From positions 15,929 to 79,928 of the forward strand of contig CAVVTR010000003.1 in NCBI GenBank assembly GCA_963751245.1: DNA of 64,000 bases, read 5' to 3'. This document shows positions 795 through 36,639 of the stretch, piece by piece; position 1 is the first letter of the stretch, and the number at the start of each line of letters is the position of its first letter. Source of the DNA: an uncultured Acidobacteriota bacterium (GTDB taxonomy: Bacteria; Acidobacteriota; Thermoanaerobaculia; Thermoanaerobaculales; Thermoanaerobaculaceae). A program made the translations under genes and the position numbers. The notes beneath the pieces were generated by a model, which saw only the letters and a program-made list of their open reading frames with translations, was not told where the DNA came from and did not search any database.

Positions 795-843
795 CTCGAC
801 GGCGGCCACTCTACACCTTTTCGGGCCTCCGCCGAAACCGGCG

Positions 844-1899: not shown

Positions 1900-1958
1900 C
1901 GGTGCCTCGAGTGTACACACGCCGCCGGGCGTCCGGCCACCGGCCCCGGAAGCGGGGG

Positions 1959-3224: not shown

Positions 3225-3313
3225 CGGCCTCTCCCTCTCCGGCGCCGCCCGGCGCCGGCGTTCCCGCGTGAGTGACGCTCCATGCTACCCCACCCGCCCG
3301 GCCGCCGCGGAGC

Positions 3314-3772: not shown

Positions 3773-3843
3773 AGATCCTCCATCGGTCGTTCCGCGGCGG
3801 GCGCGAGGTCCCCCACCGCTCCCGCGGCGCGCTCCGGTCCGTC

Positions 3844-11503: not shown

Positions 11504-11887
11504 GTGCTGAGCCGCGTCCTCGCCGTGGCGGCCGGAGGCGCGGCGGGCGCGGTCCTGCGCTACGGCGTGTCCGGCTGGGTGTCGAGGCTCACCCAGGCCT
11601 CCTCGTTCCCCTTCGGCACGCTGGCGGTGAACCTGCTGGGCGCCTTCGTCCTCGGCGCCGTCCTGGGCAGCACCGCGACGGGGCGCTTCCTGCTCTCGCC
11701 GGGGCTGCGCACGCTGGTAACCGTGGGCGTGCTGGGCGCCTTCACCACCTTCTCGACGTTCACCTACGAGACGGTCGAAGCGTTGCGCGTGGGCGACCTC
11801 CGCGTGGCCCTCCTCAACGTGGCGGTGAGCCTCGCCGCCGGGCTTCTCGCTTGCTGGCTGGGGCTCGTGGCCGGAGAGAGGCTGTGA
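11504..11887 (+). CDS. crcB: fluoride ion channel CrcB/FluC
   Basis: AAGGAAGAVLRYG..FPFGTLAVNLLGAFVLG..GVLGAFTTFSTF are typical CrcB motifs. Start placed at GTG 11504 (GAGGAG 9 nt upstream); the track start is 11471. Confidence 0.85.
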   Translation: MLSRVLAVAAGGAAGAVLRYGVSGWVSRLTQASSFPFGTLAVNLLGAFVLGAVLGSTATGRFLLSPGLRTLVTVGVLGAFTTFSTFTYETVEALRVGDLRVALLNVAVSLAAGLLACWLGLVAGERL

Positions 11888-11903
11888 GACGGGAGGACAG
11901 GCC

Positions 11904-20138: not shown

Positions 20139-23000
20139 TCAGGAACGACGCCCCACCGCCGGGGGACCCGGCGGCAGGGACGCGGCGAAGGCGTCGAGGA
20201 CCTCGAGGTACGGCCGGATGGAGGGGATGAAGTGGCGCTCGCTGCGGCTGTGGGGGCCGATTCCGCTCTGGCCCCACACCACCGCGTTGCCTCCCGGGGC
20301 GAAGCGCGCCGACGTGCCGGCCAGCTTGCGCCCCACTCCGGGGGGACACCCGCCGACCCGCTCCACCGCGGTCAGCAGCAGCGCCAGCAGGGGGTTGTCC
20401 GGCGGACAGGCCACGCCGCCCTCCACCACCTCCGCGACCAGCTCGACCCCGTGGCGCCCGGCGATCTCCCCGAGCGCGGCGACGAGGCGCTCGGCGTCGT
20501 CGGCGGGGATCGGGCGCACCTCCAGGCCGAGGTTGCCGGTCCCGGCGGAGATGTTGTAGACGCCGACCTCGCCGACGTTGAGGAAGGGGAACGTGGCCGT
20601 GCTCCGCCACCCGTCGGGTGCCTCCAGCGTGAGCAGCCCTCCGAGCCGCTCCTCGAGCTCGGCGCGCACGGCGACGAGACGCCCCACGAGGTCCACCGGC
20701 CGCCCGGCGAACCCCGTGTGGGTCCGCTCGCCGTGGGCCACGAAGCGGACCCGCACCACGCCGCGGTTGGCCACGCACACCTCGCCGAGACGCTCGTCGC
20801 CGCCTTCTCCGGTCCGCTCCCCCACCAGCATCAGCTCCGGCCTCCAGCCCCGTTCCGCGGCGAGGTCGCGGAGCAGGTGGGGGGTCCCGAACGGCTCCCG
20901 CTCCCCGTTCTCCTCGTTGCCCACGAGCATCATCGACACCGGCGGCCAGGGCGGGCCCGCCCGGCGGCGCCGCAGCATCCACTCCACGTTGGTGGCCACG
21001 ACGGTCTTCATGTCGGCGCTGCCGCGCCCCCACAGGTAGTCCCCCTCGACGTGCGGCTCGAACTGGCTGTCGTTGGGCTCGGGACGGACCACGTCGAAGT
21101 GCCCGGAAAGCACGACGGGAGCGAGCAACGCCCCGGGAAACCCCGCGACGAGGGCCGGGTAGCGGCCCGTCTCCCACAGGCGCACCTCGAGGCCCGCCTC
21201 CTGCAAGGTGCCGGCAAGGAAGCGGGCGCAGCGTTCCACCTCGCCGAGGCGCTCGTCGGCGCAGTTGGTCACCGACGGAATGCGGATCAGCTCCACCGCC
21301 AGACGGACCACGGACGCGACCTCGCCGTCCGCCACCGCCGTGACGTCCGCCGGCGCCGGCGCCGCCGCGCGGACCGGCAGCGCGGCGTTCTCCCGGGTCC
21401 AGGCCTCGAACGGCACGGTGAGCTCGCCGAGCTTCCCCGCCTCCTCTCCGAGCTCGTGGCGCGCCTCCACCACCGCCGCCGTCTCCCGCGCCACCCGCTC
21501 GCGCTCCCCGGCGATCCACTCGAGCACGAGCCCTGGGGCCACCACCGGATCCCCCAGCAGGGTGCGCCGGGACGCCCGCATGCGCTGCTCGAGCCAGAGG
21601 CGGAGGCGCTGGGCGGGGTTCGCCGCCCCCTCCGCCATGGCCCGGACCGGCTCCAGCGCCTCCTCCCAGCCCAGCGCGGCGGCGAGCTCCCGGAGGTCCT
21701 CGAGGACGGCCGCCAGCCACTCGCGCATGGGCACGACCTCCCCGCTCCAGGGGTGCTCGACCACCGCGTCGAGCCCCCGCCTGGCCGCCGCTTCCTCGTT
21801 CCGCCGCGCCCGCCCGATGTCCGCGGCGTCGTAACGGAAGCCCGCGCCGTAGGCGGGGTCCGCGTAGATGCGCAGGACGAGCAGCTGCTTGAGGACGGTC
21901 CTGGCGACGGCGAGCTCCAGCGAGCCCCCGCCCTCGTCGGTGCGCACCTCGACCCGGGTCATGGGCAGGTCCACCAGGGCGCACAGGTTCTCGATCACCA
22001 GCGCCTGCTCGGCGACGGCCAGGTCGGGGTGCTCGTCGCTGGCGTAGATGCCCCGACGGTACAGCTCGGCGAGCTGCTCGGAGGTGGTGCGGACGATGAG
22101 GTTGATGGGGTCCACGTCGGAGCGGGCGCGCACGGGCGTCCAGTTGTTCGCCCCGAAGCGGACGCCCCGGCGCACCAGGTCGGTGGAGAGGCGCAGGTAG
22201 TCCGGGTAGCTCGCGTACAGCCCCGGTACGTCGAGCTCCGGGGGGTTGGGGAAGGTGAGCAACCGGTTGGAGTCGTTGGCGGTCAGCACGATCTCGCTGC
22301 GCCCCCCGGAGGTGGCGGCGGCCAGCGGCGTCGACGCGGAGACCGCGATGAACAGGGGGCAGAACGGCCGCAGCAGGCGGGCGGCGCGGATCATGGCGTC
22401 GTTGCGGAAGTCGGCCACCCCGCGTCCCTCGCGCCGGCCCCGGGGGAGGTGGATGAAGTCCCAGGCCAGGAGCGGTTCGGGCAGCGAGTGGTTGGAGTGG
22501 ATGCCGGCGGTCGCCAGGCGCGATCCGAACAGCTCGACGCAGCGCGCCAGGTAGCGGCGCTTGGCCAGGCTCCACCCCGCCGGGATGCTGTCGCGGTCCA
22601 CGACGGTGCGGTGGGGGATGTTGCCGTGGAGGGCGAGGAGGCGGTGGCCGGCCGACAGGCCCAGCTCGAACAGGACGTCGGTGAGCACGCCCTCCAGGAC
22701 GGCGGCCTCGAACGCCGGTCCGCGCACGTCGTAGTAGGGGCGGGTGGCGAACTCGACCATCCAGTGGAACACCTCCCGCTGGACCCGGCTGCGCGCCCAG
22801 GCCGGAATGCGCTCCTCCACCAGCACGTCGGCCAGCGAGCGGCGTCCGGGGCCGAAGCCGACCAGGCCCACCGGCGCCAGGCGCTCGTCGAGGACGTTGA
22901 ACTCGACCTCGAGACCGCAGGTCCCCGCCTCGAAGCGGTCCTTGACCGCGACCTCGACGGCGAGCTGGAGCTTCTCGGCGAAGCGGCCCCAGTCAGCCAT
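20139..23000 (-). CDS. fusion protein: glutamate-cysteine-ligase-like (GshA type) domain + M20 family metallopeptidase/deacylase domain
   Basis: 953-aa ORF. N-terminal ~540 aa: CGLEVEFNVLD, HWMVEFAT, AGIHSNHSLP, RVEVRTDEGG (E. coli GshA-type metal/substrate motifs). C-terminal ~400 aa: SGHFDVV, RGSADMK, VGNEENGE, AHGERTHTG, GIGPHSRSERH (M20 ArgE/DapE/CPG2-type). The frame is continuous across the linker at ~21330-21400. Confidence 0.8.
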   Translation of the reverse strand: MADWGRFAEKLQLAVEVAVKDRFEAGTCGLEVEFNVLDERLAPVGLVGFGPGRRSLADVLVEERIPAWARSRVQREVFHWMVEFATRPYYDVRGPAFEAAVLEGVLTDVLFELGLSAGHRLLALHGNIPHRTVVDRDSIPAGWSLAKRRYLARCVELFGSRLATAGIHSNHSLPEPLLAWDFIHLPRGRREGRGVADFRNDAMIRAARLLRPFCPLFIAVSASTPLAAATSGGRSEIVLTANDSNRLLTFPNPPELDVPGLYASYPDYLRLSTDLVRRGVRFGANNWTPVRARSDVDPINLIVRTTSEQLAELYRRGIYASDEHPDLAVAEQALVIENLCALVDLPMTRVEVRTDEGGGSLELAVARTVLKQLLVLRIYADPAYGAGFRYDAADIGRARRNEEAAARRGLDAVVEHPWSGEVVPMREWLAAVLEDLRELAAALGWEEALEPVRAMAEGAANPAQRLRLWLEQRMRASRRTLLGDPVVAPGLVLEWIAGERERVARETAAVVEARHELGEEAGKLGELTVPFEAWTRENAALPVRAAAPAPADVTAVADGEVASVVRLAVELIRIPSVTNCADERLGEVERCARFLAGTLQEAGLEVRLWETGRYPALVAGFPGALLAPVVLSGHFDVVRPEPNDSQFEPHVEGDYLWGRGSADMKTVVATNVEWMLRRRRAGPPWPPVSMMLVGNEENGEREPFGTPHLLRDLAAERGWRPELMLVGERTGEGGDERLGEVCVANRGVVRVRFVAHGERTHTGFAGRPVDLVGRLVAVRAELEERLGGLLTLEAPDGWRSTATFPFLNVGEVGVYNISAGTGNLGLEVRPIPADDAERLVAALGEIAGRHGVELVAEVVEGGVACPPDNPLLALLLTAVERVGGCPPGVGRKLAGTSARFAPGGNAVVWGQSGIGPHSRSERHFIPSIRPYLEVLDAFAASLPPGPPAVGRRS

Positions 23001-23027
23001 CGCGCCCCCGCGCCGCGCCGCCCGGCC

Positions 23028-24335
23028 TCACAGCGCCTCCAGCGCCTGCCACAGGCGGTCGGCCGCCCGCGCCGTGACTTGCGGTTCCAAGGCGTAGGAG
23101 AAGCGGATCCAGCGCGCCCCCCACGCGCTGAAGTAGACGCCGGGGACGACGGCGAGGCCGTTCCGCTCCGCCAGGTAGGCGCCCATCTGGGCCGAGTCCG
23201 CCATGCCGGCGCGGTCCATCCAGCGCCCCACGTCGATGAACGCGTAGTATCCCTGTCCGGCCACGTGGGACACGCCCCAGCGGGCAAGCCGCTCGCGCAG
23301 CACCCGCCGGCTCTCGTTGGTGGGCGCCACGATGGGCCGGCACGCCTCCGCGAAGCCCATCCGGTACGCGGCGATGGCCACGGCCTGGCTGTGGAACGAC
23401 GGGATCACCCCGTGGGAGGCCCGGCTCTGCGCGAGCCGGACCACCCGCTCGGAGGCCAGCAGGTGCGCGTTGCGCACGTTGCTCGCCCCGAGGGACTTGG
23501 TGATGCCGTCGAGGACGATGCAGCGCTCACGCTCCTCGCCGCTGAGCTCGCGCAGCATGGCGTTGAGGTCGAAGGGGCGCTCGTCGGTCACCCAGTGGTA
23601 GATCCAGTCGAAGATCACGAACGGCACGCCCGCGGCGAAGGCGGCGCGGGCGAGGGCGATCTGCTCCGCCAGCGGCTGCAGGCGTCCGGTGGGGTTGTCG
23701 GGGCTGGTAACGACCAGCGCCGCCACCTTGCGGCCGTCCAGCCGCGCCGCGGCCTCCACGCACTCGCGCACGGCCCCAGGCGTGATCGCCCACCCCGCGC
23801 GCTCCTCCCCCGGCGCCAGCATCACGTTGGCGCCGACCTCGTAGGGACCCCAGTTGTACGAGATCCACGGTACCCGGCTGGTGACCACGAAGTCGCCACG
23901 CCGCCCGAAGCCGAGGATCTGGACCGCCTCGTAGGCCTTGAGGAGGGCGTCGCGCCCGCCCTGGGCGGCGAGGACGTTGGCGGGGCCCCAGCCGGAGGCG
24001 GCGTCCAGGCCCCAGTACGGTCCGGCCACCGCGGCGCGGAACGCCTGGCACCCGAACGGCTGGTCGTAGGCGGTGCCGTGCTCCTTCTGCAGCGCGTGGG
24101 CGGCGTCGAGGAGCGCCTCCGGGACTCCCGGGAGGCTGGCGCCGCCGTCGCCCTGGCTGGCGTCGAAGACCTCGCCGTCCGGCAGCGCACGCCGGTAGAC
24201 CGCGAGGGCGTCGCGGATCTCGAACATGCGGCTGCCGGGGATCGGCGCCATGGTGGCGAGGCTCGGGTCGAGACCCGCCAGGCGCTCGCGGTCCACCACC
24301 GCCACCGGTCCGGTGCTCAGGGCCTCGCTGGACAT
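23028..24335 (-). CDS. PLP-dependent aminotransferase, class I/II
   Basis: 435 aa. VTSPDNPTG, FDWIYHW, and the Schiff-base Lys context GITKSLGASNVRNAH. Ends 27 nt upstream of the fusion gene. Confidence 0.85.
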   Translation of the reverse strand: MSSEALSTGPVAVVDRERLAGLDPSLATMAPIPGSRMFEIRDALAVYRRALPDGEVFDASQGDGGASLPGVPEALLDAAHALQKEHGTAYDQPFGCQAFRAAVAGPYWGLDAASGWGPANVLAAQGGRDALLKAYEAVQILGFGRRGDFVVTSRVPWISYNWGPYEVGANVMLAPGEERAGWAITPGAVRECVEAAARLDGRKVAALVVTSPDNPTGRLQPLAEQIALARAAFAAGVPFVIFDWIYHWVTDERPFDLNAMLRELSGEERERCIVLDGITKSLGASNVRNAHLLASERVVRLAQSRASHGVIPSFHSQAVAIAAYRMGFAEACRPIVAPTNESRRVLRERLARWGVSHVAGQGYYAFIDVGRWMDRAGMADSAQMGAYLAERNGLAVVPGVYFSAWGARWIRFSYALEPQVTARAADRLWQALEAL

Positions 24336-24487
24336 CCCGTCCCCCCTTCGGGTCCCCCGGCGGCCGGAGATGGCCGCCGCTCTGCTCCCTTTGAAACGAT
24401 GAAGCCAGCGTACCGCCGCTTTGTTCCCCTCTCAAGGCGGAGCGCCGCCGCCGGGCGCCGCCGCGGCGGCCGGGATAGCATCGGGAG

Positions 24488-25759
24488 GTGCGCATCCTCT
24501 TCCTGGCCGACCGCCTCTCCCTGCGCGGCGGGGCGGACCACCACCTGCGGCAGGTCATCGCCGCGGCGGCGGCCGCCGGCCACCGGGTGACGCTGGCCTG
24601 CGGCCGCGCCGAGCCGGGCGTCGGGCCTCCGGCCGGGGTGTCCCTGGTGCGCCTGCGCGGACTGGCCGCGCGCGCCGCCTCCGCCGCCCGCCTGACCGGC
24701 CTCGACGCCCTCCTCGCCGGTCACGACGTGGTGCACGCGCAGAACGTGATGAACCCGGTGGCGCTGGCCGCCGCGACCGCCGCGGGCCGGGCGGTGGTCA
24801 CCGTGCAGGACCACCGGGTGCTGTGCCCCGGTCCGGGAAAGACGCTCCCGGACGGGTCGCGGTGCCGCGTGGCCATGGACGAGGCGGCGTGCGCCGCCTG
24901 CCTGCCCGGCGTCGCGTACCGCGAGGAAATGCTCGCCCTCACGCGGGCCCGGCTCGAGGCGCTGCGCGGCGCCCGGCTCGTGGTGCTGTCGGACTACATG
25001 GCCCGCGAGCTCGCCGCCGCGGACCTGCCGGGCGCCCGGGTGCTGCCGCCCTGGGTGACGCCGGGCCCTCCCCGCGCGAGGCCCGGGGACGGCCTCCTCC
25101 TCGCCGGCCGGATGGTGGCGCACAAGGGCGTCATCGTCGCCTGGCGCGCCTGGCGCCGGGCCGCGACGCCCCTGCCCCTGCGGGTCGCCGGCAGCGGCCC
25201 GCTGGCGGCCGCCATGGACGGCGCCGCGCGGCTGGGCTGGCTGGACCGGGCGGCGCTGCGGCGGGAGCTGCGCCGCGCCCGGGCGCTGCTGTTCCCCTCG
25301 AGGTGGCAGGAGCCGTTCGGCATCCTCGGGGTCGAGGCGCTGGCCGAGGGCACGCCGGTGATCGTCGCGGACACCGGAGGCACCCGGTCCTGGTCCGCCG
25401 CCGGCTGCCTGCGGGTCCCGGCGGGCGACGCCGGCGCCATGGCCGAGGCCGTCTCGCGGCTCGCGGCCGACCCGTCCCTCGCACTGCGCCTCGGCCGCGA
25501 GGGGCAGGCCGCCGTGGCCGTCGTCTTCTCCCGGCGGCTCATCGAGCCCCGCCTCCTCGCCCTCTACGAGGCCGCCGCCCGCGCGGAGCCTAGCCCCGCC
25601 GGCGGGGGCGTGGAGGCCGAACGCCGCCGCCGGCAGCAGCACCACGGGATTCAGCACGAGAGCTCCGGGGCCATTCGGCGGTGCGGGAGCGCAGAGACCT
25701 CGCGGGCCGTGAACCGGCATGGGAAGTTGAGGGGAACCCCCGCCCACCCCGCGGGCTGA
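24488..25759 (+). CDS. GT4-type (GT-B) glycosyltransferase
   Basis: VRILFLADRLSLRGGADHHL N-terminus. C-terminal GT1/GT4 core FPSRWQEPFGILGVEALAEGTPVIVADTGG. The last ~70 aa (after ..LLALYEAAARA) are low-complexity with lower GC3 and may not be genuine. Confidence 0.75.
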   Translation: MRILFLADRLSLRGGADHHLRQVIAAAAAAGHRVTLACGRAEPGVGPPAGVSLVRLRGLAARAASAARLTGLDALLAGHDVVHAQNVMNPVALAAATAAGRAVVTVQDHRVLCPGPGKTLPDGSRCRVAMDEAACAACLPGVAYREEMLALTRARLEALRGARLVVLSDYMARELAAADLPGARVLPPWVTPGPPRARPGDGLLLAGRMVAHKGVIVAWRAWRRAATPLPLRVAGSGPLAAAMDGAARLGWLDRAALRRELRRARALLFPSRWQEPFGILGVEALAEGTPVIVADTGGTRSWSAAGCLRVPAGDAGAMAEAVSRLAADPSLALRLGREGQAAVAVVFSRRLIEPRLLALYEAAARAEPSPAGGGVEAERRRRQQHHGIQHESSGAIRRCGSAETSRAVNRHGKLRGTPAHPAG

Positions 25760-26165: not shown

Positions 26166-29100
26166 TCAGGAGGGCTGCGGTACGCCCTCGCCGAGGACAC
26201 CCTGCACCCACCGCAGCGTCACCTCCGCGACCAGGTAGTCGCGCCGGGCGCGGGCCAGGTTGCCGCGCGCCATTGTCAGGTTGAGCTGCGCGTCGTCCAC
26301 GTCGAGGCGGGTCTTCACGCCGTACTCGTACCCCTTCTCCGCCATGAACAGCAAGCGCTTCGCCTGCTCCGTGGTCCCCGAGAGCGCCGCCACGATCTCC
26401 TCCGACTGCCGCACCGCGTCCACGGCGTTGCGGACCTCCAGGGCGATGGAGTCCCGCAGCCTGGCCTCATCGAGGCGCAGGGAGGACAGGTCGCTCCTCG
26501 CCTGGACCACCTTGCCACGGGTGCGCAGCCCGTCGAAGATGGGGAAGCTCAGGTAGAGGCCCGCGTTCCACGTCCGCCCTGCGGAGTCGTCGAGACCGGT
26601 GTCGATGGTGCGCCGGCCGTACGCCGCCCGCAGGTCCACCCGGGGCTTGTCCCCGGTGCCGGCGATGGTCACCAGCTCCTGCGCGACCTGGCGCTGGTGG
26701 GTGAGCTCCGCGAGCTCCGGGCGGTTGGCCAGCGCCACCGCCAGCGCGACCTCGTAGGACACCGGCGGCGCCGGCTCCGCGCCCAGGTCGCCCCGCGCGT
26801 CCACGTCGCGGTCCGTCTCGGCGAGGAGGAACGCCAGGCCCTCCCGGGCGGTCCGTACCGCGTTGGCGGTGCGGATCACATCCGGGCGCGCGTTGGCCAC
26901 CGCCACCTCGGCGGCGAGCACGTCGTAGTCGGTGGCGGTGCCCGCCGAGTACCGGTTGCGGGCCTCCTCCAGGTGACGCTCCTTCTGCTGCAGGTTCTCC
27001 TCGGCGATGGCCGCCATCTCCTTGGCCAGCAGCACGTCGTAGAACGCCGCCGTCACGTCCCGGCGCACCGCCTGCCGGAAGCGGCGCAGGTTGTCATCGC
27101 CGGTGGCGAGACCCACCTTGGCGGCGCGGATGGCCGCGCCCACCTTTCCCCAGGTGAACACGGCCTGGGAGAGGCCGAGCTCGGCGGTGGTCACGTCCTG
27201 CTGGAAGGAGAAGATGGCGCCGAACTCCGCGGGGATGTCCTTGAAGAAGTCCTGCTGGCTGGCGTCGTACTGGCGCAGCCCGGCGGCGGTGAGGGTGAGC
27301 TGCGGCAGCGCCGCGGCGCGCTCCTCCACGTACTTGCCCGCGAGCCAGCGGCGGTACTCCTCGGCCTTCTGGATGTCGCGGTTGCGCTCCGCCGCCATCC
27401 TCAGCGCCTCGTCGAGCGTCAGCGTGACGGTGGTCGCAACCCCCGTCGCGGGGACGGCTGCGGGGGCGACCGGCTGCTGGGCGCGGGCCGGGGCCGCGGC
27501 CCCGGCGAGCAGCGCGAGGGCGATCCCGACGGCCGCGGCCCGGGAGGGCTTCGCCGCCCCGGCCACGCGGCGCTTCAGGCGGACAACGAGGTCGTCGAGG
27601 GCCGTGTAGACCACCGGAACCACGAGCAGGGTGAGCAGGGTCGAGGTGATGAGCCCGCCGATGACGGCGCGGGCCATGGGTGCGCGCATCTCGCCGCCGG
27701 ACCCCAGCGCGAGGGCCAGCGGGAGCATGCCGAAGATCATCGCGGTGGTGGTCATCATGATGGGCCGCAGCCGCGTCCGGCCGGCCTCGATGACCGCCGT
27801 CCGCCGGTCCATGCCGCGCCTTCGCAGGACCTTGGCGTAGTCCACCAGCAGGATGGCGTTCTTGGTCACCAGGCCCATGAGCATGATGAGGCCGATGAGG
27901 GACATGATGTTGATGGTGTCGCCGGTGAGCAGCAGCATCCCCGCCATGCCCACGATGGACAGGGGGAGGGACAGCATGATGGCCAGGGGGTCCATGAACG
28001 ACTCGAACTGGGCCGCCAGGATCAGATACACAAAGACGATGGCGAGGAGCAGCGCCTCTCCCATGTAGCGGAACGACTCCTCCATGGCCTCGTTCTCGCC
28101 GGCCAGGACGACGCTGTAGCCCGGCGGCAGGTGCATGCCGGCGGCGACCTCCCTCACCTTCTGCACCGCCGTGCCGAGGGGAAGCCCGTCCAGGTTGGCC
28201 GACACGACCACCTCACGGCTGAGGTCGCGGCGGACGATCTCCGAGGGGGTGGTGGCCGCCTCGTAGCGCGCCAGGGAACCCAGGGAGACCAGCGCCGGCG
28301 CCTGACCCGGCCGGTTGACCACGAGACGCAGCGCCGCCACCTGGGCGATGTCCCGGCGGGAGGCCTCGGGCAGCCGCAGGCGCACGTCGATGGCGTCGCC
28401 GTCCTCGTCCTCGAAGGTGGAGACGGCCTGACCGCCCACGAGCACCCCGAGGGTCCGGGCGACGGCGGCGGAGCTGAGGCCCGCGTCGGCGGCGCGCTCT
28501 CGGTCGATGACGAGGCGGTACTCGGGGCTCTCGTGCTCCAGGGACATCTCCAGGTCCACGATGCCGGGAACGCCGTAGAGCGCGCCCTTCATCTGCGCGG
28601 CGTAGGTCTTGAGCCGGGCCAGGTCCTCGCCCCGGATGCTCGCCTGCAGCGGCTTGCGGCTGTCGAGGTTGCCGGACTCGGCGAAGGAGGGCACGATCCC
28701 GGCGATCGCGACGAGCCGCTCACGCAGCTCCCTCTGGATCTCCTTCTGGGACCGGGCTCGCTCCGCGCGGTCCTTGAGCTTCACGTAGACGCTGGCGTCG
28801 CGCACCGTGCCGGTGTCCCCGGCGCCGATGGAGGCGTAGGTGTGGTCCACCTCGGGGAGGCTGCCGATCGCTGCCAGCACCACCCCCAGCCGGTTGGTGG
28901 TCTCCTCCAGGGAGGCGTCCGGCGCAGTGGAGAAGTTGACCTGGAACTCGCCCTGGTCGGAGGCGGGGAAGAACTCGTTCTCGAGCATCCCGAACGCCAC
29001 GATGCCGCCGAAGAACGCCACGGTGGCGGCGGCCAGCACCGTCTTGCGGTGGTCCAGGGCCCATCCGATGACCGCTCGGTAGCGGTCCGCGGTGCGGTCG

Positions 29101-30638
29101 AACCAGGCGTTGAACACGTCCAGCGCGTGCTTGACGAAACCGCGCCTGCCGCTGCGGGCGATGTCCGGGTCCACCCACCGCGACGACAGCATGGGGTCCA
29201 GGGTGAAGGAGACGAACAGCGACACCAGCACGGCGAAGGCCACGGTGATGCCGAACTGGAAGAAGAACCGCCCCACGATGCCCTTCATGAACGCCACCGG
29301 CACGAACACGGCGATCACCGACATGGTGGTCGCCAGCACCGCCAGGCCGATCTCGGCGGTGCCCTCGCGGGCCGCCTCGAAGTGGTCCTGCCCCATCTCC
29401 AGGTGGCGGACGATGTTCTCGCGGACCACGATGGCGTCGTCAATGAGCAGGCCGATGGCCAGGGAGAGCGCCATCAGGGTCATCATGTTGAGGGTCATGT
29501 GGAGGAAGTTCATGGCGATGAACGACGAGATCACCGAGATGGGCAGGGTGAGCCCGGTGATCACGGTGGAGCGCCAGGAGTTGAGAAAGAAGAAGACGAT
29601 GAGCACGGTGAGGATGCCGCCGATGACCATGGTCTCCTGCACGTCTCGCACGGAGTCCCGGATCATGATGGAGCCGTCGCGCACCATGTCGATGCCGACA
29701 CCGGACGGCAGCTCCGTGCCCAGGGTCGCGACCTCCCGCTTCACCGCGTCCACCACGTCCACGGTGTTCGCCCCGGACTGCTTGAGGACGTCCAGAGCCA
29801 CCGCCGGGGTGCCGTTGACCACCGCCAGGGAGCGCTGCTCCTCGACGCCGTCCACGATGGTGGCGATCTCGCCCAGGGTGACGGGACGGCCGCCGCGCTG
29901 GGCGACGACCATGCCGGCGAACCCGGACACGTGCTCGGGCTTGCCCGAGATGCGCAGGGTGGCCTCGGTGGCCGCCCGGTCGAGCCGCCCCACCGGGGTG
30001 TTGATGTTCTCGGCCTGCACCCCCGCCACCACGTCGTCCACGTTCAGGCCCAGCGCCTCGAGACGCGCCGGGTCCAGCTCCACCTGGACCTCGCGGGGCG
30101 CCGCGCCGACCAGGTCCACCTTGCCCACGCCCGAGATGTTCTCCAGGCGGCGCTTGATCTTCTTGTCCACCAGCGTGGTCAGGTCCCGGACGGACAGCGT
30201 GTCGGAGCGGATGGCCAGCGACGCCACCGGCATGGCGGCGATCTCCAGCTTCTGCACCACCGGCTCCTCGATGTCCCGGGGCAGGTCGCCGCGGATGGCC
30301 GCGATCTTGGCGCGGGCCTCCTGCGCGGCGTCGTTCACCGAAACGCCGAGCTCGAACTCCACCACCACCTGGGAGACGCCCTCACGGGACACGGAGGACA
30401 CGTGCTTGACGCCGGCGATGGGGTTCACCGCCTCCTCGAGGGGCTTGGTCACCTCGCGCTCGACGCTCTCCGGGGCCGCCCCCTGATAGACGGTGACGAT
30501 GGAGAGCACGGGGATCTCCACGTCGGGGTACATGTCCACCGCCAGCTGGCGGTACGAGAACACGCCCAGGGTCACCAGCGCCAGCATCATGACGGCGGCC
30601 AGGACGGGGCGCTTGATCGACAGGTTGGACAGGAACAT
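26166..30638 (-). CDS. RND efflux permease (aa 1-~1024) fused in frame to a TolC-like outer membrane factor (aa ~1025-1490)
   Basis: N-terminus MFLSNLSIKRPVLAAVMMLAL..YPDVEIPVLSI is AcrB-family, with 12-TM architecture ending ..LLVVPVVYTALDDLVVR. It is followed directly by LKRRVAGAAKPSRAAAVGIALALLAGAAAPARA|QQ (a signal-peptide-like segment) and then a complete OMF with two repeats (..LTLDEALRMAAERNRDIQ..). No stop lies between the two parts. Confidence 0.85.
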   Translation of the reverse strand: MFLSNLSIKRPVLAAVMMLALVTLGVFSYRQLAVDMYPDVEIPVLSIVTVYQGAAPESVEREVTKPLEEAVNPIAGVKHVSSVSREGVSQVVVEFELGVSVNDAAQEARAKIAAIRGDLPRDIEEPVVQKLEIAAMPVASLAIRSDTLSVRDLTTLVDKKIKRRLENISGVGKVDLVGAAPREVQVELDPARLEALGLNVDDVVAGVQAENINTPVGRLDRAATEATLRISGKPEHVSGFAGMVVAQRGGRPVTLGEIATIVDGVEEQRSLAVVNGTPAVALDVLKQSGANTVDVVDAVKREVATLGTELPSGVGIDMVRDGSIMIRDSVRDVQETMVIGGILTVLIVFFFLNSWRSTVITGLTLPISVISSFIAMNFLHMTLNMMTLMALSLAIGLLIDDAIVVRENIVRHLEMGQDHFEAAREGTAEIGLAVLATTMSVIAVFVPVAFMKGIVGRFFFQFGITVAFAVLVSLFVSFTLDPMLSSRWVDPDIARSGRRGFVKHALDVFNAWFDRTADRYRAVIGWALDHRKTVLAAATVAFFGGIVAFGMLENEFFPASDQGEFQVNFSTAPDASLEETTNRLGVVLAAIGSLPEVDHTYASIGAGDTGTVRDASVYVKLKDRAERARSQKEIQRELRERLVAIAGIVPSFAESGNLDSRKPLQASIRGEDLARLKTYAAQMKGALYGVPGIVDLEMSLEHESPEYRLVIDRERAADAGLSSAAVARTLGVLVGGQAVSTFEDEDGDAIDVRLRLPEASRRDIAQVAALRLVVNRPGQAPALVSLGSLARYEAATTPSEIVRRDLSREVVVSANLDGLPLGTAVQKVREVAAGMHLPPGYSVVLAGENEAMEESFRYMGEALLLAIVFVYLILAAQFESFMDPLAIMLSLPLSIVGMAGMLLLTGDTINIMSLIGLIMLMGLVTKNAILLVDYAKVLRRRGMDRRTAVIEAGRTRLRPIMMTTTAMIFGMLPLALALGSGGEMRAPMARAVIGGLITSTLLTLLVVPVVYTALDDLVVRLKRRVAGAAKPSRAAAVGIALALLAGAAAPARAQQPVAPAAVPATGVATTVTLTLDEALRMAAERNRDIQKAEEYRRWLAGKYVEERAAALPQLTLTAAGLRQYDASQQDFFKDIPAEFGAIFSFQQDVTTAELGLSQAVFTWGKVGAAIRAAKVGLATGDDNLRRFRQAVRRDVTAAFYDVLLAKEMAAIAEENLQQKERHLEEARNRYSAGTATDYDVLAAEVAVANARPDVIRTANAVRTAREGLAFLLAETDRDVDARGDLGAEPAPPVSYEVALAVALANRPELAELTHQRQVAQELVTIAGTGDKPRVDLRAAYGRRTIDTGLDDSAGRTWNAGLYLSFPIFDGLRTRGKVVQARSDLSSLRLDEARLRDSIALEVRNAVDAVRQSEEIVAALSGTTEQAKRLLFMAEKGYEYGVKTRLDVDDAQLNLTMARGNLARARRDYLVAEVTLRWVQGVLGEGVPQPS

Positions 30639-30751
30639 CGCCGACTCCTCCTCGCGGCGGCGCCACGGCTCCCGGGAACGGCGGCGCGGTCGGGTGTCCG
30701 CGTCCGTCTCGCCCGGGCCGTGCCGGCAGCCCCCGCGCCTCTCCCGGCGCC

Positions 30752-31870
30752 TCAGACGGCGCCGGCGCTCTCCACCACCTTCACCTGGTCGCCGTCCTTC
30801 AGGTTGAAACCGCCCCGCACGACCACCCGGTCGCCGGCGGCGAGCCCCTCCGAGACCTCGACGGTGTCGCCGGAGACGGTCCGGGCAGCCACCGGCCGCC
30901 GTCGCGCGACGTCGCCCGTGACCACGAACACCTCACCGCTGCCCTTCTCCACGTCCCAGCGGAGCAGCGCCCCGCGGGGGATGAGGAGCGCATCCTCGCG
31001 GGTCCCCGTGACGATACGGCCCTTGACGAACAGGCCGCCCCGCAGCGCGCCGTCATCGTTCCTCACCTCGGCCGTGACCTTCACCGCGCGGTCCAGCTCG
31101 CCCACCGCAGGGTTGATGTGGCGCACCGTCCCCTCGAACGTCTTCCCCGGCAGCGCGTCCACCGTGAAGAGGAGCGGCTGCCCCACCCGGACGGCCGCGC
31201 TGAAGGTGGAGGGCACCGACACCGTGAGGTCGAGGAGGCGGTTGTCCACGATGCGGAACATGGGCGCGCCGCTGCCCATGTTCTCCACGCGGTCTCCCAC
31301 GTTGACCCCGCGCTCAGCCACCACCCCGTCGATGGGCGCCCGGATCACCACCTTGTCCAGGCGGGTCTCCACCGCCGCCAGCTGGGCGCGGGCGGCGGCC
31401 GTCACCGCCTGGGCCGCGTCCCGGGCCGTGCGGGCGTCGTCGAGCTGCTGCTCGGTGACCAGTCCCACGTCCTTGAGCTTGAGGGCGCGCTCGAGCTCGC
31501 GGCGGGCCCGGGTCTCGGCCACCTCCGCCTGCTTCAGCGCGGCCCGCATCGTGTCCACGGCGTTCTCCGCCTCGCGGCTGTCGAGCCGGGCCAGGGGCTG
31601 CCCGCGGGTCACCGGCACCCACTCGGTGACGTAGACGTCCCTGACCACCGCTGTGAACTCCGACTTGACCTCCGCGGCGACCTTGGGGGCCAGCGTCCCC
31701 ACCACCCCGACGGCCTCGGTGACCCGTGCCGCGGAGACCTCCGCCACCTCCACCGCCACCGTCGGGCGCCCCGCCGACGCCCCCTCCTGCCCGGCGCCCT
31801 CGCGGGAGCACGCGCTCACCGCCACGCCGCAGACCGCCACCAGCACCACTGCCATCGCTCTTTGTCCCAT
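30752..31870 (-). CDS. efflux RND periplasmic adaptor (MFP, HlyD/AcrA family) lipoprotein
   Basis: Start at ATG 31870 (MGQRAMAVVLVAVCGVAVSAC lipobox). Coiled-coil hairpin and beta-barrel segments (..VIRAPIDGVVAERGVNVGD..). ATGA overlap with the tetR stop. Confidence 0.85.
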   Translation of the reverse strand: MGQRAMAVVLVAVCGVAVSACSREGAGQEGASAGRPTVAVEVAEVSAARVTEAVGVVGTLAPKVAAEVKSEFTAVVRDVYVTEWVPVTRGQPLARLDSREAENAVDTMRAALKQAEVAETRARRELERALKLKDVGLVTEQQLDDARTARDAAQAVTAAARAQLAAVETRLDKVVIRAPIDGVVAERGVNVGDRVENMGSGAPMFRIVDNRLLDLTVSVPSTFSAAVRVGQPLLFTVDALPGKTFEGTVRHINPAVGELDRAVKVTAEVRNDDGALRGGLFVKGRIVTGTREDALLIPRGALLRWDVEKGSGEVFVVTGDVARRRPVAARTVSGDTVEVSEGLAAGDRVVVRGGFNLKDGDQVKVVESAGAV

Positions 31871-32499
31871 CACGAAGACTCCTTCTCCCCCACCGGCGCC
31901 GCCAGGGCGCCGCGGAGCACCACGTCGAGCACCCGCGAGAGGGTGGTCCGGTCCACGCTCCACTCCGGGTGGCACAGGGCCAGGCCCTCCGCCGTGTCGA
32001 AGGCGCCGAGGACCGCCATCGCGACGATCTCGGGCTCCCCCTCGCGCAGCTCGCCGGAGGCCATGCCCTCGTTGACGAGTCCCAGCACCACCGCCTGCAG
32101 CCTCTCGTGAAAGGCGTCGAAGTCGAACAGCGGCGCGTCCTGCGGAGGTCCGAAGTAGAGGGCGTGGGCGACCCGCACCACGGAGAGGTTGCCGAGCACC
32201 AGTGCGAAGAGCTGGTCCATCAGCCGGTACAACCGCTCCGTGGCGGTACCTCCCGCGTCCAGGGCGGCGCCGATGGTCGCATCGAACAGCGCGAGCGCCC
32301 GGCTCATGATCTCGGCGAAGATCCCGTCCTTGCTGCCGAAGTAGTAGTACAGGACGGGCTTGGTGACCCCCGCGGCCTCGACGATCTCGCGCACGGTGGT
32401 GGCCGCGTAGCCCTTGCAGGCGAAGAGCTCCACCGCGGCGGCCATCAGCCGCTCCCGCGAGCTGTCGTCCTCCGCCGGACGGATCTCCCCTGCCTCCAC
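31870..32499 (-). CDS. TetR/AcrR family transcriptional regulator
   Basis: HTH RLMAAAVELFACKGYAATTVREIVEAAGVTKPVLYYYFGSKDGIF. Start set at GTG 32499 (GAAGGAGG 4 nt upstream); the track start is 32589. Confidence 0.85.
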   Translation of the reverse strand: MEAGEIRPAEDDSSRERLMAAAVELFACKGYAATTVREIVEAAGVTKPVLYYYFGSKDGIFAEIMSRALALFDATIGAALDAGGTATERLYRLMDQLFALVLGNLSVVRVAHALYFGPPQDAPLFDFDAFHERLQAVVLGLVNEGMASGELREGEPEIVAMAVLGAFDTAEGLALCHPEWSVDRTTLSRVLDVVLRGALAAPVGEKESS

Positions 32500-32517
32500 G
32501 CCGCCTCCTTCTGCCAC

Positions 32518-32543
32518 AAAAAAGCGGTCGTCTTGTGACGACC
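32518..32543 (-). promoter_or_regulatory. perfect 7-4-7 palindrome GGTCGTC-ACAA-GACGACC followed by T6: candidate TetR operator and/or intrinsic terminator
   Basis: Seen directly in the sequence. It lies between the putative -10 and the tetR SD (GAAGGAGG), and 100 nt downstream of the ALDH stop. Confidence 0.4.
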
Positions 32544-32561
32544 GGACACTACCTACCGATA

Positions 32562-32589
32562 AGTATAGGACACGACGCGCCGCCGTCAA
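32562..32589 (-). promoter_or_regulatory. putative promoter of the tetR-MFP-RND operon
   Basis: Minus strand TTGACG (32584-32589), 16 nt, TATACT (32562-32567), in a lower-GC spacer between the ALDH stop and the tetR start. Confidence 0.4.
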
Positions 32590-32643
32590 CCCCTCCCGGC
32601 GGTGCGCGGGCGGCGGGGGCGGCGGCGGCGCGCCCCTGCCGGG

Positions 32644-34059
32644 CTACCCGAGGTAGAAGCAGTACACCTTGGGCTCGGTCATCTCCTGCAGCGAGAACTT
32701 CACCCCCTCGCGCCCCAACCCCGAGTTCTTGATCCCCCCGAACGGCATGGAGTCCAGCCGGTAGTCGGTGGAGTCGTTGATCATGACGCCGCCGCACTCC
32801 AGCCGCGAGGCGATGTCGAACGCCACGTTGACGTCGCGGGCGAACACCGCCGCGTGCAGGCCGTAGGGGATGGCGTTGGCCTCGGCGATGGCCGTGTCGA
32901 GGTCGTCGAAGGGGTAGAGGTTCACCGTGGGGCCGAAAACCTCCTCGTGGTGGAGGGTGGCGGTCTCCGGGACCCCCTCGAGCACGGTGGGCGCCATCAG
33001 CGCCCCGGCCCTGGTCCCGCCGGAGAGCACCGCGGCGCCCGCCTCCCGGGCTTCCGCGACCCAGCGCTCCACCCGCTTCGCCTCCCCCTCGGTGATCATC
33101 GGCCCCATGTCGGTGCCCTCGTCCATCTTGTCGCCCACCCGGTACGCCCGGGTGCGGGCCGCGAAGGCGTCGCGGAAGACGTCGTAGACGTCGCGGTGGA
33201 CGTAGAGGCGCTGGACGCCGATGCAGTTCTGCCCGGCCGCCCAGAAGGCGCCGGAGACGCAGGTCTCCACGGCCCACTCGACGTCGGCGTCGCGCCACAC
33301 GATGACCGGTGAGTTGGAGCCCAGCTCCATGCCGATCTTCTTCAGCCCGGCCAGGGAGGCGATGCGCCGCCCCGCCTCGACGCCGCCGGTGAAGGAGACC
33401 ATCCGCGGACGCGGATCCGCCACCAGCGCGTCGCCGATCTCCGCCCCGTAGCCGGTGAGGGTCTGCAGGACGTCTCCGGGCAGCCCCGCCTCCAGCAGCG
33501 CCTCGGTGAGCTTGAGGGCGGACAGCGGGGTGACCGTGGCCGGCTTGAGGATCACCGAGTTGCCGGCGGCGATGGCGGGCCCGAGCTTGTGGGCGACCAG
33601 GTTGAGGGGATCGTTGAACGGCGTGATCGCCACCACGGGGCCGATGGGCACCCGCTCGAAGAAGCCGCGGCGGCGCTCGCCGCCGGGAAACGAGTCGAAG
33701 GGGATGGTCTCGCCGAGGACCCGCTTGGCCTCCTCGCCGGAGACCGTGAGGGTGTTGGTGCAGCGCCTCGCCTCCTTGCGCGCCTCGCGGATGGTCTTGG
33801 AGCCCTCCCTGGCGATGGTGCGCGCGAACTCCTCCAGGTTCTCCTCGACGATCCGGGCGGCCCTGAAGAGGACCTGGGCGCGGTCGTAGACGGTCATGGA
33901 GCGCGCCGTCGCGAAACCCCCGACGGCGGCGCGGAGCGCCTCGTCCACGTCGTCGCGGTCCGCCGCCGGGACCGTGTCGATGACGGCGTTGTCGAAGGGA
34001 TCGTGGACCTCGATCCGCCGCGGGCGGTCCACCCACTGGCCGCACAGGAACATCTTCAT
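32644..34059 (-). CDS. NAD(P)-dependent aldehyde dehydrogenase
   Basis: 471 aa. ALDH motifs FTGG, catalytic ELGSNSP (Glu) and GQNCIGVQR (Cys), and EEVFGP. Confidence 0.9.
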   Translation of the reverse strand: MKMFLCGQWVDRPRRIEVHDPFDNAVIDTVPAADRDDVDEALRAAVGGFATARSMTVYDRAQVLFRAARIVEENLEEFARTIAREGSKTIREARKEARRCTNTLTVSGEEAKRVLGETIPFDSFPGGERRRGFFERVPIGPVVAITPFNDPLNLVAHKLGPAIAAGNSVILKPATVTPLSALKLTEALLEAGLPGDVLQTLTGYGAEIGDALVADPRPRMVSFTGGVEAGRRIASLAGLKKIGMELGSNSPVIVWRDADVEWAVETCVSGAFWAAGQNCIGVQRLYVHRDVYDVFRDAFAARTRAYRVGDKMDEGTDMGPMITEGEAKRVERWVAEAREAGAAVLSGGTRAGALMAPTVLEGVPETATLHHEEVFGPTVNLYPFDDLDTAIAEANAIPYGLHAAVFARDVNVAFDIASRLECGGVMINDSTDYRLDSMPFGGIKNSGLGREGVKFSLQEMTEPKVYCFYLG

Positions 34060-35075: not shown

Positions 35076-35115
35076 CGATACCTCCAGTCCGGCCCGTCCG
35101 TGGGTGGCGCGCGGC

Positions 35116-36486: not shown

Positions 36487-36509
36487 GACGGCCTCCTCTC
36501 CTCGGCGCC

Positions 36510-36578
36510 GTGGAGCGGCCGGCACCGTCCCGGGCGGGACGAACCCTCCCCCGGGGAGGCTTGCGCGCGGCCGCTCAC
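36510..36578 (-). promoter_or_regulatory. structured 5' leader (three-way junction) upstream of metY-hom-ALDH; possible riboswitch or translational control element
   Basis: Minus-strand RNA. P1: GUGAGCGGCCG (36568-36578) pairs with CGGCCGCUC(C)AC (36510-36521). P2 hairpin CCUCCC-cgg-GGGAGG (36545-36559). P3 hairpin GUCCC-gccc-GGGAC (36527-36540). The CCUCC of P2 is complementary to the SD GGAGAGGAGG. Confidence 0.35.
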
Positions 36579-36639
36579 GTTGGTGACCAGTGTTGCACGA
36601 GCGGACCGCCACCGACAACGGGCCGGCCGGAGCTCCGGC

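Follow-up and report, generated by a model that had tools for sequence, protein, structure and literature searches.

The ligase-M20 fusion gene and its locus

The window, a stretch of 64,000 nucleotides from an uncultured bacterium of the Thermoanaerobaculaceae (Acidobacteriota; contig CAVVTR010000003.1), contains a two-gene operon for an aminotransferase and a ligase-M20 fusion protein, with the following features:

20139..23000, minus strand: ligase-M20 fusion gene, a single unbroken ORF of 953 aa
20166..21326, minus strand: M20 metallo-deacylase domain of the ArgE/DapE/LysK type, about residues 559-945, including the lid/dimerisation sub-domain
21327..21389, minus strand: Ala/Pro-rich flexible linker, residues 538-558, in frame and with no stop
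21390..21536, minus strand: long helix bridging the ligase and M20 halves, residues 489-537, one 49-residue helix in both AF2 models
21576..23000, minus strand: ligase domain with the GCL / carboxylate-amine-ligase fold, about residues 1-475
23001..23027, minus strand: intergenic spacer between aminotransferase and fusion gene, 27 nt, read from the sequence
23028..24335, minus strand: 435-aa aminotransferase of class I/II (fold type I), which opens the two-gene operon
24336..24487: intergenic region separating the aminotransferase gene from the divergent GT4 gene, presumed promoter site
24488..25759, plus strand: divergent GT4 glycosyltransferase gene

The aminotransferase stop codon lies 27 nt ahead of the fusion-gene start, and the spacer carries a G-rich, Shine-Dalgarno-like run (gggggcg) directly 5' of the ATG. 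No terminator-like site was found in 19900-24700, with which co-transcription of both genes is consistent. The presumed promoter region 24336..24487 gave no Rfam match, no Thr/Asn-rich small ORF and no match to the sigma-70 consensus, and the window locus is devoid of a leader peptide or attenuator. Rfam searches detected no riboswitch upstream of the module in the window or in 10 loci. There is also no conserved small ORF and no zinc-ribbon or LysW-like ORF near the module; thus, the substrates are probably small molecules that require no carrier protein.

A sequence-only reading of this DNA had proposed that an amide-forming and an amide-cleaving M20 domain occur in one polypeptide, and the polypeptide is genuine, with one ORF and collinear homologues. 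The linker string AALPVRAAAPAPADVTAV (residues 539-556, 21333-21386) is free of in-frame stops, as had been stated, and GC3 is high, reaching 0.96 over the whole frame. That an assembly or frameshift artefact joined two separate genes is a negligible prospect: the contigs at the junction are short, of low depth and none of them spans 21376-21715, which leaves some room for such an error, but they do not contradict the assembly, the frame keeps its GC3 of 0.96 throughout, and the same collinear ORF recurs in over 100 assemblies made independently, by different studies and from different phyla. The earlier argument against a single indel therefore stands, as the fusion is collinear in at least 120 full-length homologues and at least 121 species genomes, and the linker junction is collinear in all orthologues. 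Structure prediction of the interdomain region, which had been suggested as a check, returned the 49-residue connector helix and a full-length pTM of 0.82, with lower pLDDT (66-72) in the linker.

Domain families and active sites

All the catalytic motifs quoted earlier are present, namely CGLEVEFNVLD (28-38), HWMVEFAT (79-86), AGIHSNHSLP (165-174) and RVEVRTDEGG (349-358) in the ligase half and SGHFDVV (632-638), RGSADMK (659-665), VGNEENGE (693-700), AHGERTHTG (755-763) and GIGPHSRSERH (913-923) in the M20 half. The catalytic hallmarks are kept in both halves, each centre being intact and invariant across two phyla.

The identification of the ligase half as GshA, in turn, is not supported. 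In profile searches, this half scores 18.2 bits against Pfam GCS2 (PF04107), with residues 197-283 only being matched, and does not reach the gathering threshold of 21 for membership of the GCS2/YbdK family. Its scores against the NCBIfam YbdK/GshA equivalogs are 27-40 bits, for cut-offs of 249-425. No equivalog threshold of GshA proper is reached, and the conserved association is with an aminotransferase and an M20 enzyme, not with GshB. Sequence search of the PDB with this half matched only the C-terminal helices of YbdK, and identity to solved GCL-fold structures is 12-18%. The AF2 model of the ligase half (pLDDT 89.3, pTM 0.91) matched in Foldseek, at a probability of 1.00 and TM values of at most 0.74, YbdK (1r8g, TM 0.74, and 1tt4), GshA (3nzt, 1v4g and 1va6), GshAB (3ln7) and plant GCL (2gwc), followed by PafA/Dop and GS. 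Among 33 sequences from two phyla, E31, E33, E76, H168, N170, R246, R349, E351 and R353 are invariant and E83 is almost invariant; the invariant residues line up with the motifs that bind metal and ATP in GshA (SGVHYNFSLP) and YbdK, H168 being aligned to the SGVHYN motif in a weak profile alignment to GshA. The protein has both the fold and the conserved Glu/His/Arg metal/ATP residues of the GCL/GS-fold ligase superfamily, within which it is a separate deep branch and probably not a GshA. It shares the common fold and the Mg/ATP-binding Glu/His/Arg constellation of E. coli GshA, YbdK/GCS2 and plant GCL, but is only 12-18% identical to them, falls below Pfam and NCBIfam cut-offs, and has about 100 extra residues, a 49-residue connector helix and a different partner domain. 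As in GshF/GshAB, represented among the fold matches by 3ln7, a GCL-fold domain is joined at its C-terminus to a second enzyme, here one that would belong to the same pathway; however, the partner is an M20 hydrolase and not a second ligase, no GshF-type C-terminal ATP-grasp domain being present in the fusion.

The M20 half scores 62.7 bits against Pfam Peptidase_M20 (PF01546; cut-off 24.6, 6e-17, residues 631-939), and its best PDB matches are 2rb7, DapE, ArgE, CPG2 and LysK. H634, D636, D663, E696, E697, E728 and H917, which form the di-zinc site and general base, are invariant, as is the lid residue H761. With the Pfam threshold passed and a complete set of di-zinc ligands and general-base Glu, this half belongs to PF01546, in the ArgE/DapE/LysK clade. 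It reaches none of the equivalog cut-offs for DapE (PRK13009, 75.9 versus 284), ArgE (TIGR01892, 39.8 versus 297.7) or LysK/ArgE (TIGR01902, 25.9 versus 163.1).

The aminotransferase matches Pfam Aminotran_1_2 at 2.7e-21, and its nearest solved structures are aspartate aminotransferases. Across 53 orthologues, conservation of 95% or more is seen, among other residues, at the PLP lysine K280, D243, N214 and R411 and in the family-specific motifs D58-ASQGDGG-65 and W157-x-SY-x-WGPY-165. Judged by invariant residues, AF2 models and fold matches, the ligase, the M20 enzyme and the aminotransferase are all predicted to be catalytically competent.

Co-inheritance and regulation of the three activities

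The search returned 1,618 homologues, and all 120 that were listed are full-length, with 55-70% identity. Species genomes with a collinear fusion orthologue number at least 121 and belong to Acidobacteriota, Chloroflexota Anaerolineales and, in one case, Methylomirabilota. The earlier remark that no GshA-M20 fusion was known to have been described holds insofar as no publication describing the ligase-M20 architecture was found in the literature, but the architecture is not rare, with at least 1,400 database proteins. The domain-architecture check likewise gave a divided answer: the fusion is widespread (at least 121 species genomes), but database names for it are only generic, the machine-made labels being 'M20/M25/M40 family metallo-hydrolase' or 'succinyl-diaminopimelate desuccinylase'. 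Among close relatives of the window genome, the module is patchy (16 of 31), so it must be dispensable or replaceable.

The aminotransferase gene is the sole universal neighbour of the fusion gene across 86 loci; beyond it, synteny is clade-specific and involves genes that, judged by eye, look like housekeeping genes. The association of the three activities is obligate. In a distant fused form of about 25% identity, the aminotransferase still lies 8 nt upstream; in two proteins (P0017 and P0026), ligase, aminotransferase and M20 form triple fusions; and, in two divergent lineages (loci L021 and L121), split operons have the order ligase, aminotransferase, M20. At locus L020, the aminotransferase is followed by the M20 gene, whose stop codon is overlapped by an aspartokinase gene. 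Aspartokinase adjoins the module in only 1 of the 86 loci and was rejected as a regular operon member. Another copy (locus L016) lies among genes of the carbamoyltransferase (OTCace-family) and carA types inside a pyrimidine operon. As for stand-alone relatives, one (P0128) ends at a contig edge, and two (P0175 and P0147), located on phage-like contigs, offer no information. The earlier framing of a bond-maker fused to a bond-breaker was incomplete, since the aminotransferase 27 nt upstream had been missed. With this partner, the paradox would turn into a three-step pathway.

In Anaerolineales, the operon is preceded at 25 loci by a leader ORF whose core contains 24.6% Thr and 16.6% Asn, compared with backgrounds of 5.2% and 4.0%, a mild enrichment in Arg (9.6% versus 5.7%) and 1.6% Lys; these statistics come from related sequences, and their p-values are inflated. 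A terminator lies 3' of the leader ORF (100% of cells paired, with CG/UA covariation), and a 12-bp antiterminator, mutually exclusive with it, is 95% paired and covaries (GC/AU) in the same column. The Anaerolineales operons, with a biased leader and exclusive helices, carry a ribosome-mediated leader-peptide attenuator. It has no Rfam family, and it was found in Anaerolineales copies only; the Acidobacteriota loci, that of the window included, lack it. The arrangement resembles that of E. coli thrL: the antiterminator, which competes with an intrinsic terminator, is overlapped by a short ORF containing runs of regulatory codons. In the Anaerolineales leader, these codons are those for Thr and Asn, with some for Arg. 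Ribosome stalling at Thr and Asn codons, and less so at Arg codons, would induce the module, which we infer to be switched on in Anaerolineales by shortage of Thr and Asn and, to a lesser degree, of Arg. The leader codons would also tie the module to aspartate-family biosynthesis.

Gene arrangement and regulation both bear on the possibility that the protein is a synthetase/amidase homeostat, in which ligase and M20 would make and break the same amide to buffer a pool and the aminotransferase would supply a building block. Opposing activities in one chain with both sites intact would suit such a role, and E. coli glutathionylspermidine synthetase/amidase (Gss) and trypanothione synthetase-amidase provide precedents for opposing activities in one enzyme. 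Nevertheless, the aminotransferase is part of the same chain in some organisms and lies between the ligase and M20 genes in split operons, and attenuation by amino-acid starvation is typical of a biosynthetic flux pathway rather than of a pool buffer. Moreover, although Gss and trypanothione synthetase-amidase also combine amide-forming and amide-cleaving activities in one polypeptide, their folds are unrelated (CHAP amidase and Gss-type synthetase), their two activities are directed at the same bond, and no aminotransferase accompanies them. We consider the homeostat quite improbable.

A candidate pathway and its relation to known systems

We hold with moderate confidence that the trio constitutes a self-contained route that would ligate, transaminate and hydrolyse via a transient amide intermediate. 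In the first step, an ATP-dependent ligation by the GCL-fold domain would link the amino group of a small-molecule partner to a carboxylate. The gamma-carboxyl of glutamate is the most likely one, but is named by analogy with the family, as the ligase is only remotely related to characterised GCLs. The dedicated PLP aminotransferase would then transaminate the amide intermediate, and hydrolysis of the amide by the M20 domain would set the product free and return the partner to the ligase. Since the first and last enzymes would share a recycled component and yet act on different molecules, their fusion would be sensible and no futile cycle would arise. Two sub-variants fit the evidence equally well. 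The first would be a sequence of protection, transamination and deprotection, on the pattern of the routes that use acetyl (Arg), succinyl (DAP) and LysW (Lys) groups. In the second, the alpha-amino group of a gamma-glutamyl amide would be transferred to a keto acid, e.g., oxaloacetate, and the M20 domain would cleave the resulting 2-oxoglutaryl amide, the net reaction being an ATP-driven, irreversible transamination.

The connection of the pathway with aspartate is drawn from the proximity of the aminotransferase to AspATs, the aspartokinase overlap at L020 and the pyrimidine operon at L016; we infer this link, as well as the step order and the gamma-glutamyl chemistry. A more specific proposal, which we put forward tentatively and with considerable doubt, is that the trio could represent an unrecognised ATP-dependent step of primary metabolism, in the aspartate family of amino acids, that uses a transient gamma-glutamyl-type handle. 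In its boldest form this would be a cycle, with a gamma-glutamyl amide donating its amino group to oxaloacetate, M20 cleavage following, and the amine partner returning to the fused ligase. Against the pathway reading, gene order is weak evidence for reaction order, and the window genome already has a canonical AspAT-like gene. Moreover, this genome lacks Asd, ThrC and AsnB, which makes a role upstream of threonine impossible in this organism.

Those absences, together with those of DapB and LysA, give the window organism the appearance of an amino-acid auxotroph and scavenger, and a homoserine-to-aspartate-like salvage operon lies near the module. Both points would favour a loose, co-expressed amino-acid salvage set with no shared intermediate, in which the fusion would only set stoichiometry: for instance, the M20 domain could act on N-acyl amino acids or dipeptides to free an amino acid for interconversion by the aminotransferase, and the ligase could make an amide such as asparagine, a formation that the Asn codons of the leader would also suit. 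We judge this set unlikely, given that three-way co-inheritance remains strict at identities as low as about 25%, whether the genes are fused or split, and that the full-length AF2 pTM of 0.82 with a rigid helical connector points to a functional unit.

The three-step pathway has its closest logical parallels in ArgA/J-ArgD-ArgE, DapD-DapC-DapE and LysX-LysJ-LysK (with the carrier LysW), where N-acylation, an aminotransferase and an M20 deacylase act in series and to whose ArgE/DapE/LysK-family deacylases the M20 half is structurally closest. Unlike these routes, the module employs a GCL-fold ATP-dependent ligase instead of a CoA-dependent acyltransferase or the ATP-grasp LysX, has the ligase fused to the deacylase and a class I, AspAT-like aminotransferase, contains neither a kinase/reductase pair nor a carrier protein, and misses all equivalog thresholds. 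Genomic tests exclude DAP as the product and make Lys and Orn unlikely.

In the diaminopimelate/lysine case, the N-protecting group, otherwise supplied by succinyl-CoA (DapD) or LysW, would come from free glutamate with ATP, the acceptor would be tetrahydrodipicolinate or aminoadipate, and the aminotransferase and M20 enzymes would correspond to DapC/LysJ and DapE/LysK. The parallel with DapD-DapC-DapE, the best sub-threshold M20 matches (DapE and LysK) and the lack of any known lysine route in the window genome speak for it, but such a variant is exceedingly improbable. DapB is missing throughout 31 genomes from the window's order, and only 1 of 25 bearers outside it has the gene; the DapA-like protein of the window genome is below cut-off, in a catabolic context and not a true DapA, so that no tetrahydrodipicolinate would be made; and E. 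coli DapB and DapD queries found no match in that genome, with DapL, DapD, Ddh and DapB each absent from all 31 relatives. DapF is found in 30 of the 31 relatives regardless of the module and in none of 16 Anaerolineales bearers, and LysX accompanies the module in 13 of those 16 and in 4 of 5 LysX-bearing close relatives. Both DapF and LysX thus follow lineage, not module. The DAP variant was rejected because DapB is nearly absent among bearers and DapF does not track the module, and a substitute for LysX/LysK in the aminoadipate route because LysX co-occurs with it and no LysW-like gene is near; in addition, the leader senses Thr and Asn, with Lys at 1.6%. For the upstream half of the AAA pathway, the evidence is ambiguous, the window genome having a single LeuA-like and a single LeuCD-like set.

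An alternative ornithine route, in which N-acylation would trap glutamate semialdehyde/P5C ahead of transamination and deacylation, is very improbable too. Its logic parallels ArgA-D-E and would fit the mild Arg enrichment of the leader; however, the leader is dominated by Thr and Asn, and the window genome possesses an arginine operon (argG, argC, class-III argD, carbamoyltransferase, argB, argH and an M20 deacylase of its own), although an enzyme for the initial N-acylation was not identified.

For the second sub-variant of the three-step pathway, the model is the 'glutaminase II' combination of glutamine synthetase, glutamine transaminase and omega-amidase, where ligation, transamination and keto-amide hydrolysis achieve an irreversible amino transfer. 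The transaminase and amidase families differ from those of the module, and the ligases share only the broad GS/GCL fold.

If the pathway reading is correct, Anaerolineales and Thermoanaerobaculia-type Acidobacteriota, abundant but almost uncultured bacteria of sediment, soil and sludge, carry an amino-acid pathway that is missing from metabolic maps, and annotation pipelines and genome-scale models mislabel its protein as 'succinyl-diaminopimelate desuccinylase'. The module would then represent a fourth solution to the chemistry of attaching a handle, transaminating and removing the handle, based on a GCL-fold enzyme, and would explain why a bond-maker and a bond-breaker are fused. With only two genes for three activities, the system is compact and should lend itself to expression in E. 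coli, and its Thr/Asn attenuator provides a built-in regulatory clue.

A ligase and an M20 hydrolase in one polypeptide

A single unbroken ORF encodes the ligase-M20 fusion protein, and every motif that the sequence-only reading had cited for the two halves was found in it. Its claim of one polypeptide across the Ala/Pro linker also holds, the ORF being uninterrupted with a GC3 that is high (0.96) over its full length.

20139..23000, minus strand: ORF of the fusion protein (953 aa)
21333-21386, minus strand: Ala/Pro linker of the fusion protein (residues 539-556)
23028..24335, minus strand: class-I aminotransferase (435 aa), ending 27 nt upstream of the fusion gene

A word-indexed search gave 1,618 homologues, and the 120 listed, which come from many independent assemblies, are all full-length (931-1391 aa, 55-70% identity, at least 97% query coverage) and carry no database name other than 'M20/M25/M40 family metallo-hydrolase' or 'succinyl-diaminopimelate desuccinylase'. 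When 1.8 billion cluster representatives were scanned exhaustively with HMMER, 1,423 matched, and a scan with one genome per species gave 121 fusion loci, every one in a MAG, distributed among Acidobacteriota (Thermoanaerobaculia, Holophagae, Aminicenantes), Chloroflexota (many Anaerolineales) and one Methylomirabilota. Public-run contigs over the fusion junction, too short and shallow to decide the matter, contained nothing contradicting the assembly. The comparative evidence makes it very unlikely that the fusion originated as an assembly artefact; the sequence-only reading, too, had seen no obvious explanation in a single indel.

Peptidase_M20 is clear at residues 631-939 (Pfam, 6e-17), whereas the GCS2 match, at 18.2 bits, does not reach the cut-off of 21. 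Among NCBIfam models, the C-terminal half is nearest to DapE, ArgE and LysK and the N-terminal half to cyanobacterial GshA and YbdK-type carboxylate-amine ligases, all far under their curated cut-offs. In an alignment of 33 fusion sequences (~25-70% identity range), the ligase residues E31, E33, E76, H168, N170, R246, R349, E351 and R353 are invariant, and so are the complete di-zinc site of the M20 half (H634, D663, E697, E728, H917), D636, the general base E696 and the lid histidine H761. The full-length AlphaFold2 model is confident (pLDDT 85.9, pTM 0.82) and connects the halves by a 49-residue helix (489-537) and a short flexible linker; its M20 half matches 2rb7, DapE, ArgE, CPG2 and LysK. 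The ligase half modelled alone (pLDDT 89.3, pTM 0.91) matches YbdK (TM 0.74), Salmonella 1tt4, E. coli and Francisella GshA, GshAB and plant GCL, followed by PafA/Dop and glutamine synthetases, and profile alignments place H168 in the 'SGVHYNFSLP' motif of GshA, with E83 and S244-x-R246 aligned to the corresponding motifs of YbdK. Identity to the matched structures is only 12-18%. The N-terminal half thus forms a deep branch of its own within the GCL-fold ligase superfamily, and its earlier identification as GshA is not borne out.

Both domains also have distant relatives that stand alone (P0175 for the ligase, P0147 for the M20 domain), encoded on contigs (L019 and L122/L123) that are phage-like and crowded with small unannotated ORFs. 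Another fusion in the window, the RND::OMF case of the sequence-only reading (26166..30932, minus strand), is a 1588-aa ORF in which residues 102-1112 form an AcrB-type RND transporter and residues ~1396-1573 an outer-membrane efflux protein domain (OEP).

The aminotransferase partner and its leader

The neighbours of the aminotransferase and fusion genes are divergent and convergent, thus the operon, here called the module, consists of these two genes. Across 86 loci, the aminotransferase is the only universal neighbour of the fusion gene, the remaining recurrent ones being housekeeping-looking genes in clade-specific synteny, and neither a conserved small ORF nor a carrier resembling LysW was found near the module. 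The association persists through deep divergence and rearrangement: the aminotransferase lies 8 nt upstream of a fused homologue at ~25% identity, all three domains share one chain in P0017 (1391 aa) and P0026 (1380 aa), two divergent metagenomic operons encode ligase, aminotransferase and M20 as three separate genes in this order, and the L020 operon runs from aminotransferase to M20 to an overlapping aspartokinase-like gene. The aminotransferase family conserves the PLP lysine K280, D243, N214 and R411, together with unusual motifs of its own, and its closest solved relatives are aspartate aminotransferases.

In 25 Anaerolineales loci, a homologous short leader ORF lies 100-250 nt upstream of the aminotransferase (leader or attenuator named in L062, L063, L064, L066, L067, L070-L072, L077, L078, L083, L085, L087, L088 and L100, ~100-250 nt before its start). 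The leader core is rich in Thr (24.6% vs a background of 5.2%), Asn (16.6% vs 4.0%) and Arg (9.6% vs 5.7%), and no enrichment of Asp, Lys, Met or Ile was found in it. The ORF traverses the segment CGGGRCRTTGGT, a potential pairing partner for the 5' arm of the intrinsic terminator, which is invariant (GCCCCG-loop-CGGGGC and a T-run). Pairing of the terminator extends to 100% of cells and includes one compensatory pair (CG/UA); for the 12-bp antiterminator it is 95%, with a GC/AU compensatory change at a column shared with the terminator. The leader region is thus a classical ribosome-mediated attenuator, in which stalling at Thr or Asn codons would free the antiterminator strand and complete translation would mask it. 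It matches no Rfam family and is absent from the window and from the Acidobacteriota loci examined. In L064, a Moco (molybdenum cofactor) riboswitch (11748..11894, minus strand), unrelated to the module, lies ~3 kb downstream of it.

The enzyme families of the module are already known, and databases list the fusion protein, though with names that are generic or misleading. In the literature searched, no description was found of the ligase-M20 architecture, of its obligate aminotransferase partner or of the Thr/Asn attenuator, and all three therefore appear new to it.

A proposed transient amide and known amino-acid pathways

The module is most economically explained by three successive steps on a transient amide, in which the ligase half would form the amide at the expense of ATP, the aminotransferase would transaminate it, and the M20 half would hydrolyse it in a zinc-dependent reaction, giving back the ligation partner. 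Under this scheme, maker and breaker can share a chain without a futile cycle, the aminotransferase is inseparable from both, and no further pathway gene is required. A homeostat of the Gss synthetase/amidase type, formed by ligase and M20, or a looser salvage trio of the three activities would each fit less well, both with the tight three-way linkage and with attenuation control. The three-step sequence could take two forms, which the in silico evidence supports equally: ligation might protect the amino group of the acceptor, resembling the logic of the Arg, DAP and Lys pathways, or activate the donor and make amination irreversible at ATP cost, resembling glutamine-transaminase/omega-amidase logic.

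Among 31 genomes of the window's order, 16 bear the module, with one genus split. DapB, DapD, DapL, Ddh and LysK over cut-off are found in 0/31, the control search detecting DapB in 11/14 reference genomes; DapF is found in 30, with or without the module, and exceeds its cut-off in 29; LysX exceeds its own in five, four of them bearers. Among 25 bearers from other lineages, two of which appear to duplicate genomes of the first sample, DapB occurs in one, DapF in 8/8 Acidobacteriota vs 0/16 Anaerolineales, and LysX in 13/16 Anaerolineales vs 1/9 of the remainder; both DapF and LysX thus go with lineage, and the module is confined almost only to DapB-less lineages. In the window's genome, E. coli queries for DapB, DapD and LysA gave no match, and the sole DapA-like gene is under its curated cut-off in a catabolic-looking cluster.

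Two roles were rejected: a tetrahydrodipicolinate-to-DAP bypass, on the DapB counts and the lineage-bound DapF; and a replacement of LysX/LysK, as LysX follows lineage and occurs alongside the module. A requirement for ornithine is unlikely, as the window's genome has an arginine operon of the ordinary kind, which includes an M20 deacylase.

DapF thus occurs in the window's order although DapB, DapD, DapL and Ddh are lacking there, and E. coli LysA and Asd are unmatched in the window's genome. At L012, in a relative (G002), positions 1..3822 contain part of a cluster for the aminoadipate pathway: homocitrate synthase, a gap big enough for lysW, lysX and lysY. The next gene is class-II glutamine-amidotransferase-like, its product has an N-terminal Cys (MCRLLAV...), and it is unusual company for this cluster.

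Probable ties to aspartate metabolism

Biosynthesis of Thr, Asn and Arg, the residues enriched in the leader, draws on aspartate; lysine in DapB-less bearers presumably does not. Three further points lead the same way: the partner aminotransferase is AspAT-like, an aspartokinase-like gene follows the L020 copy, and the L016 copy is embedded in an operon for pyrimidines that also has carbamoyltransferase (OTCace-family) and carA-type genes. Taken together, they place the module in the biosynthetic part of aspartate-family metabolism, as an inference. Adjacency of an aspartokinase to the module is rare, at 1/86 loci.

At 31870..36618 (minus strand), a small operon encodes a PLP enzyme of Cys/Met metabolism (500 aa), homoserine dehydrogenase (339 aa), aldehyde dehydrogenase (471 aa) and a TetR regulator; with no Asd, ThrC or aspartokinase in the genome, it looks like salvage from homoserine/methionine through aspartate-semialdehyde to aspartate rather than biosynthesis. 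A 774-aa protein (3844..6168, minus strand) begins with ~395 aa of near-canonical aspartate aminotransferase (405 bits vs the archaeal AspAT model, not DapL), and its C-terminal ~380-aa domain, of unassigned function, has a P-loop-like GGPGSGRTG motif.

Asd, ThrC, ThrB, AsnB and a full aspartokinase were not recognisable in the window's genome, where the same method detected arg genes. The module product there is therefore not a de novo threonine precursor; aspartate, or a compound at the aspartate level, is compatible as the product.
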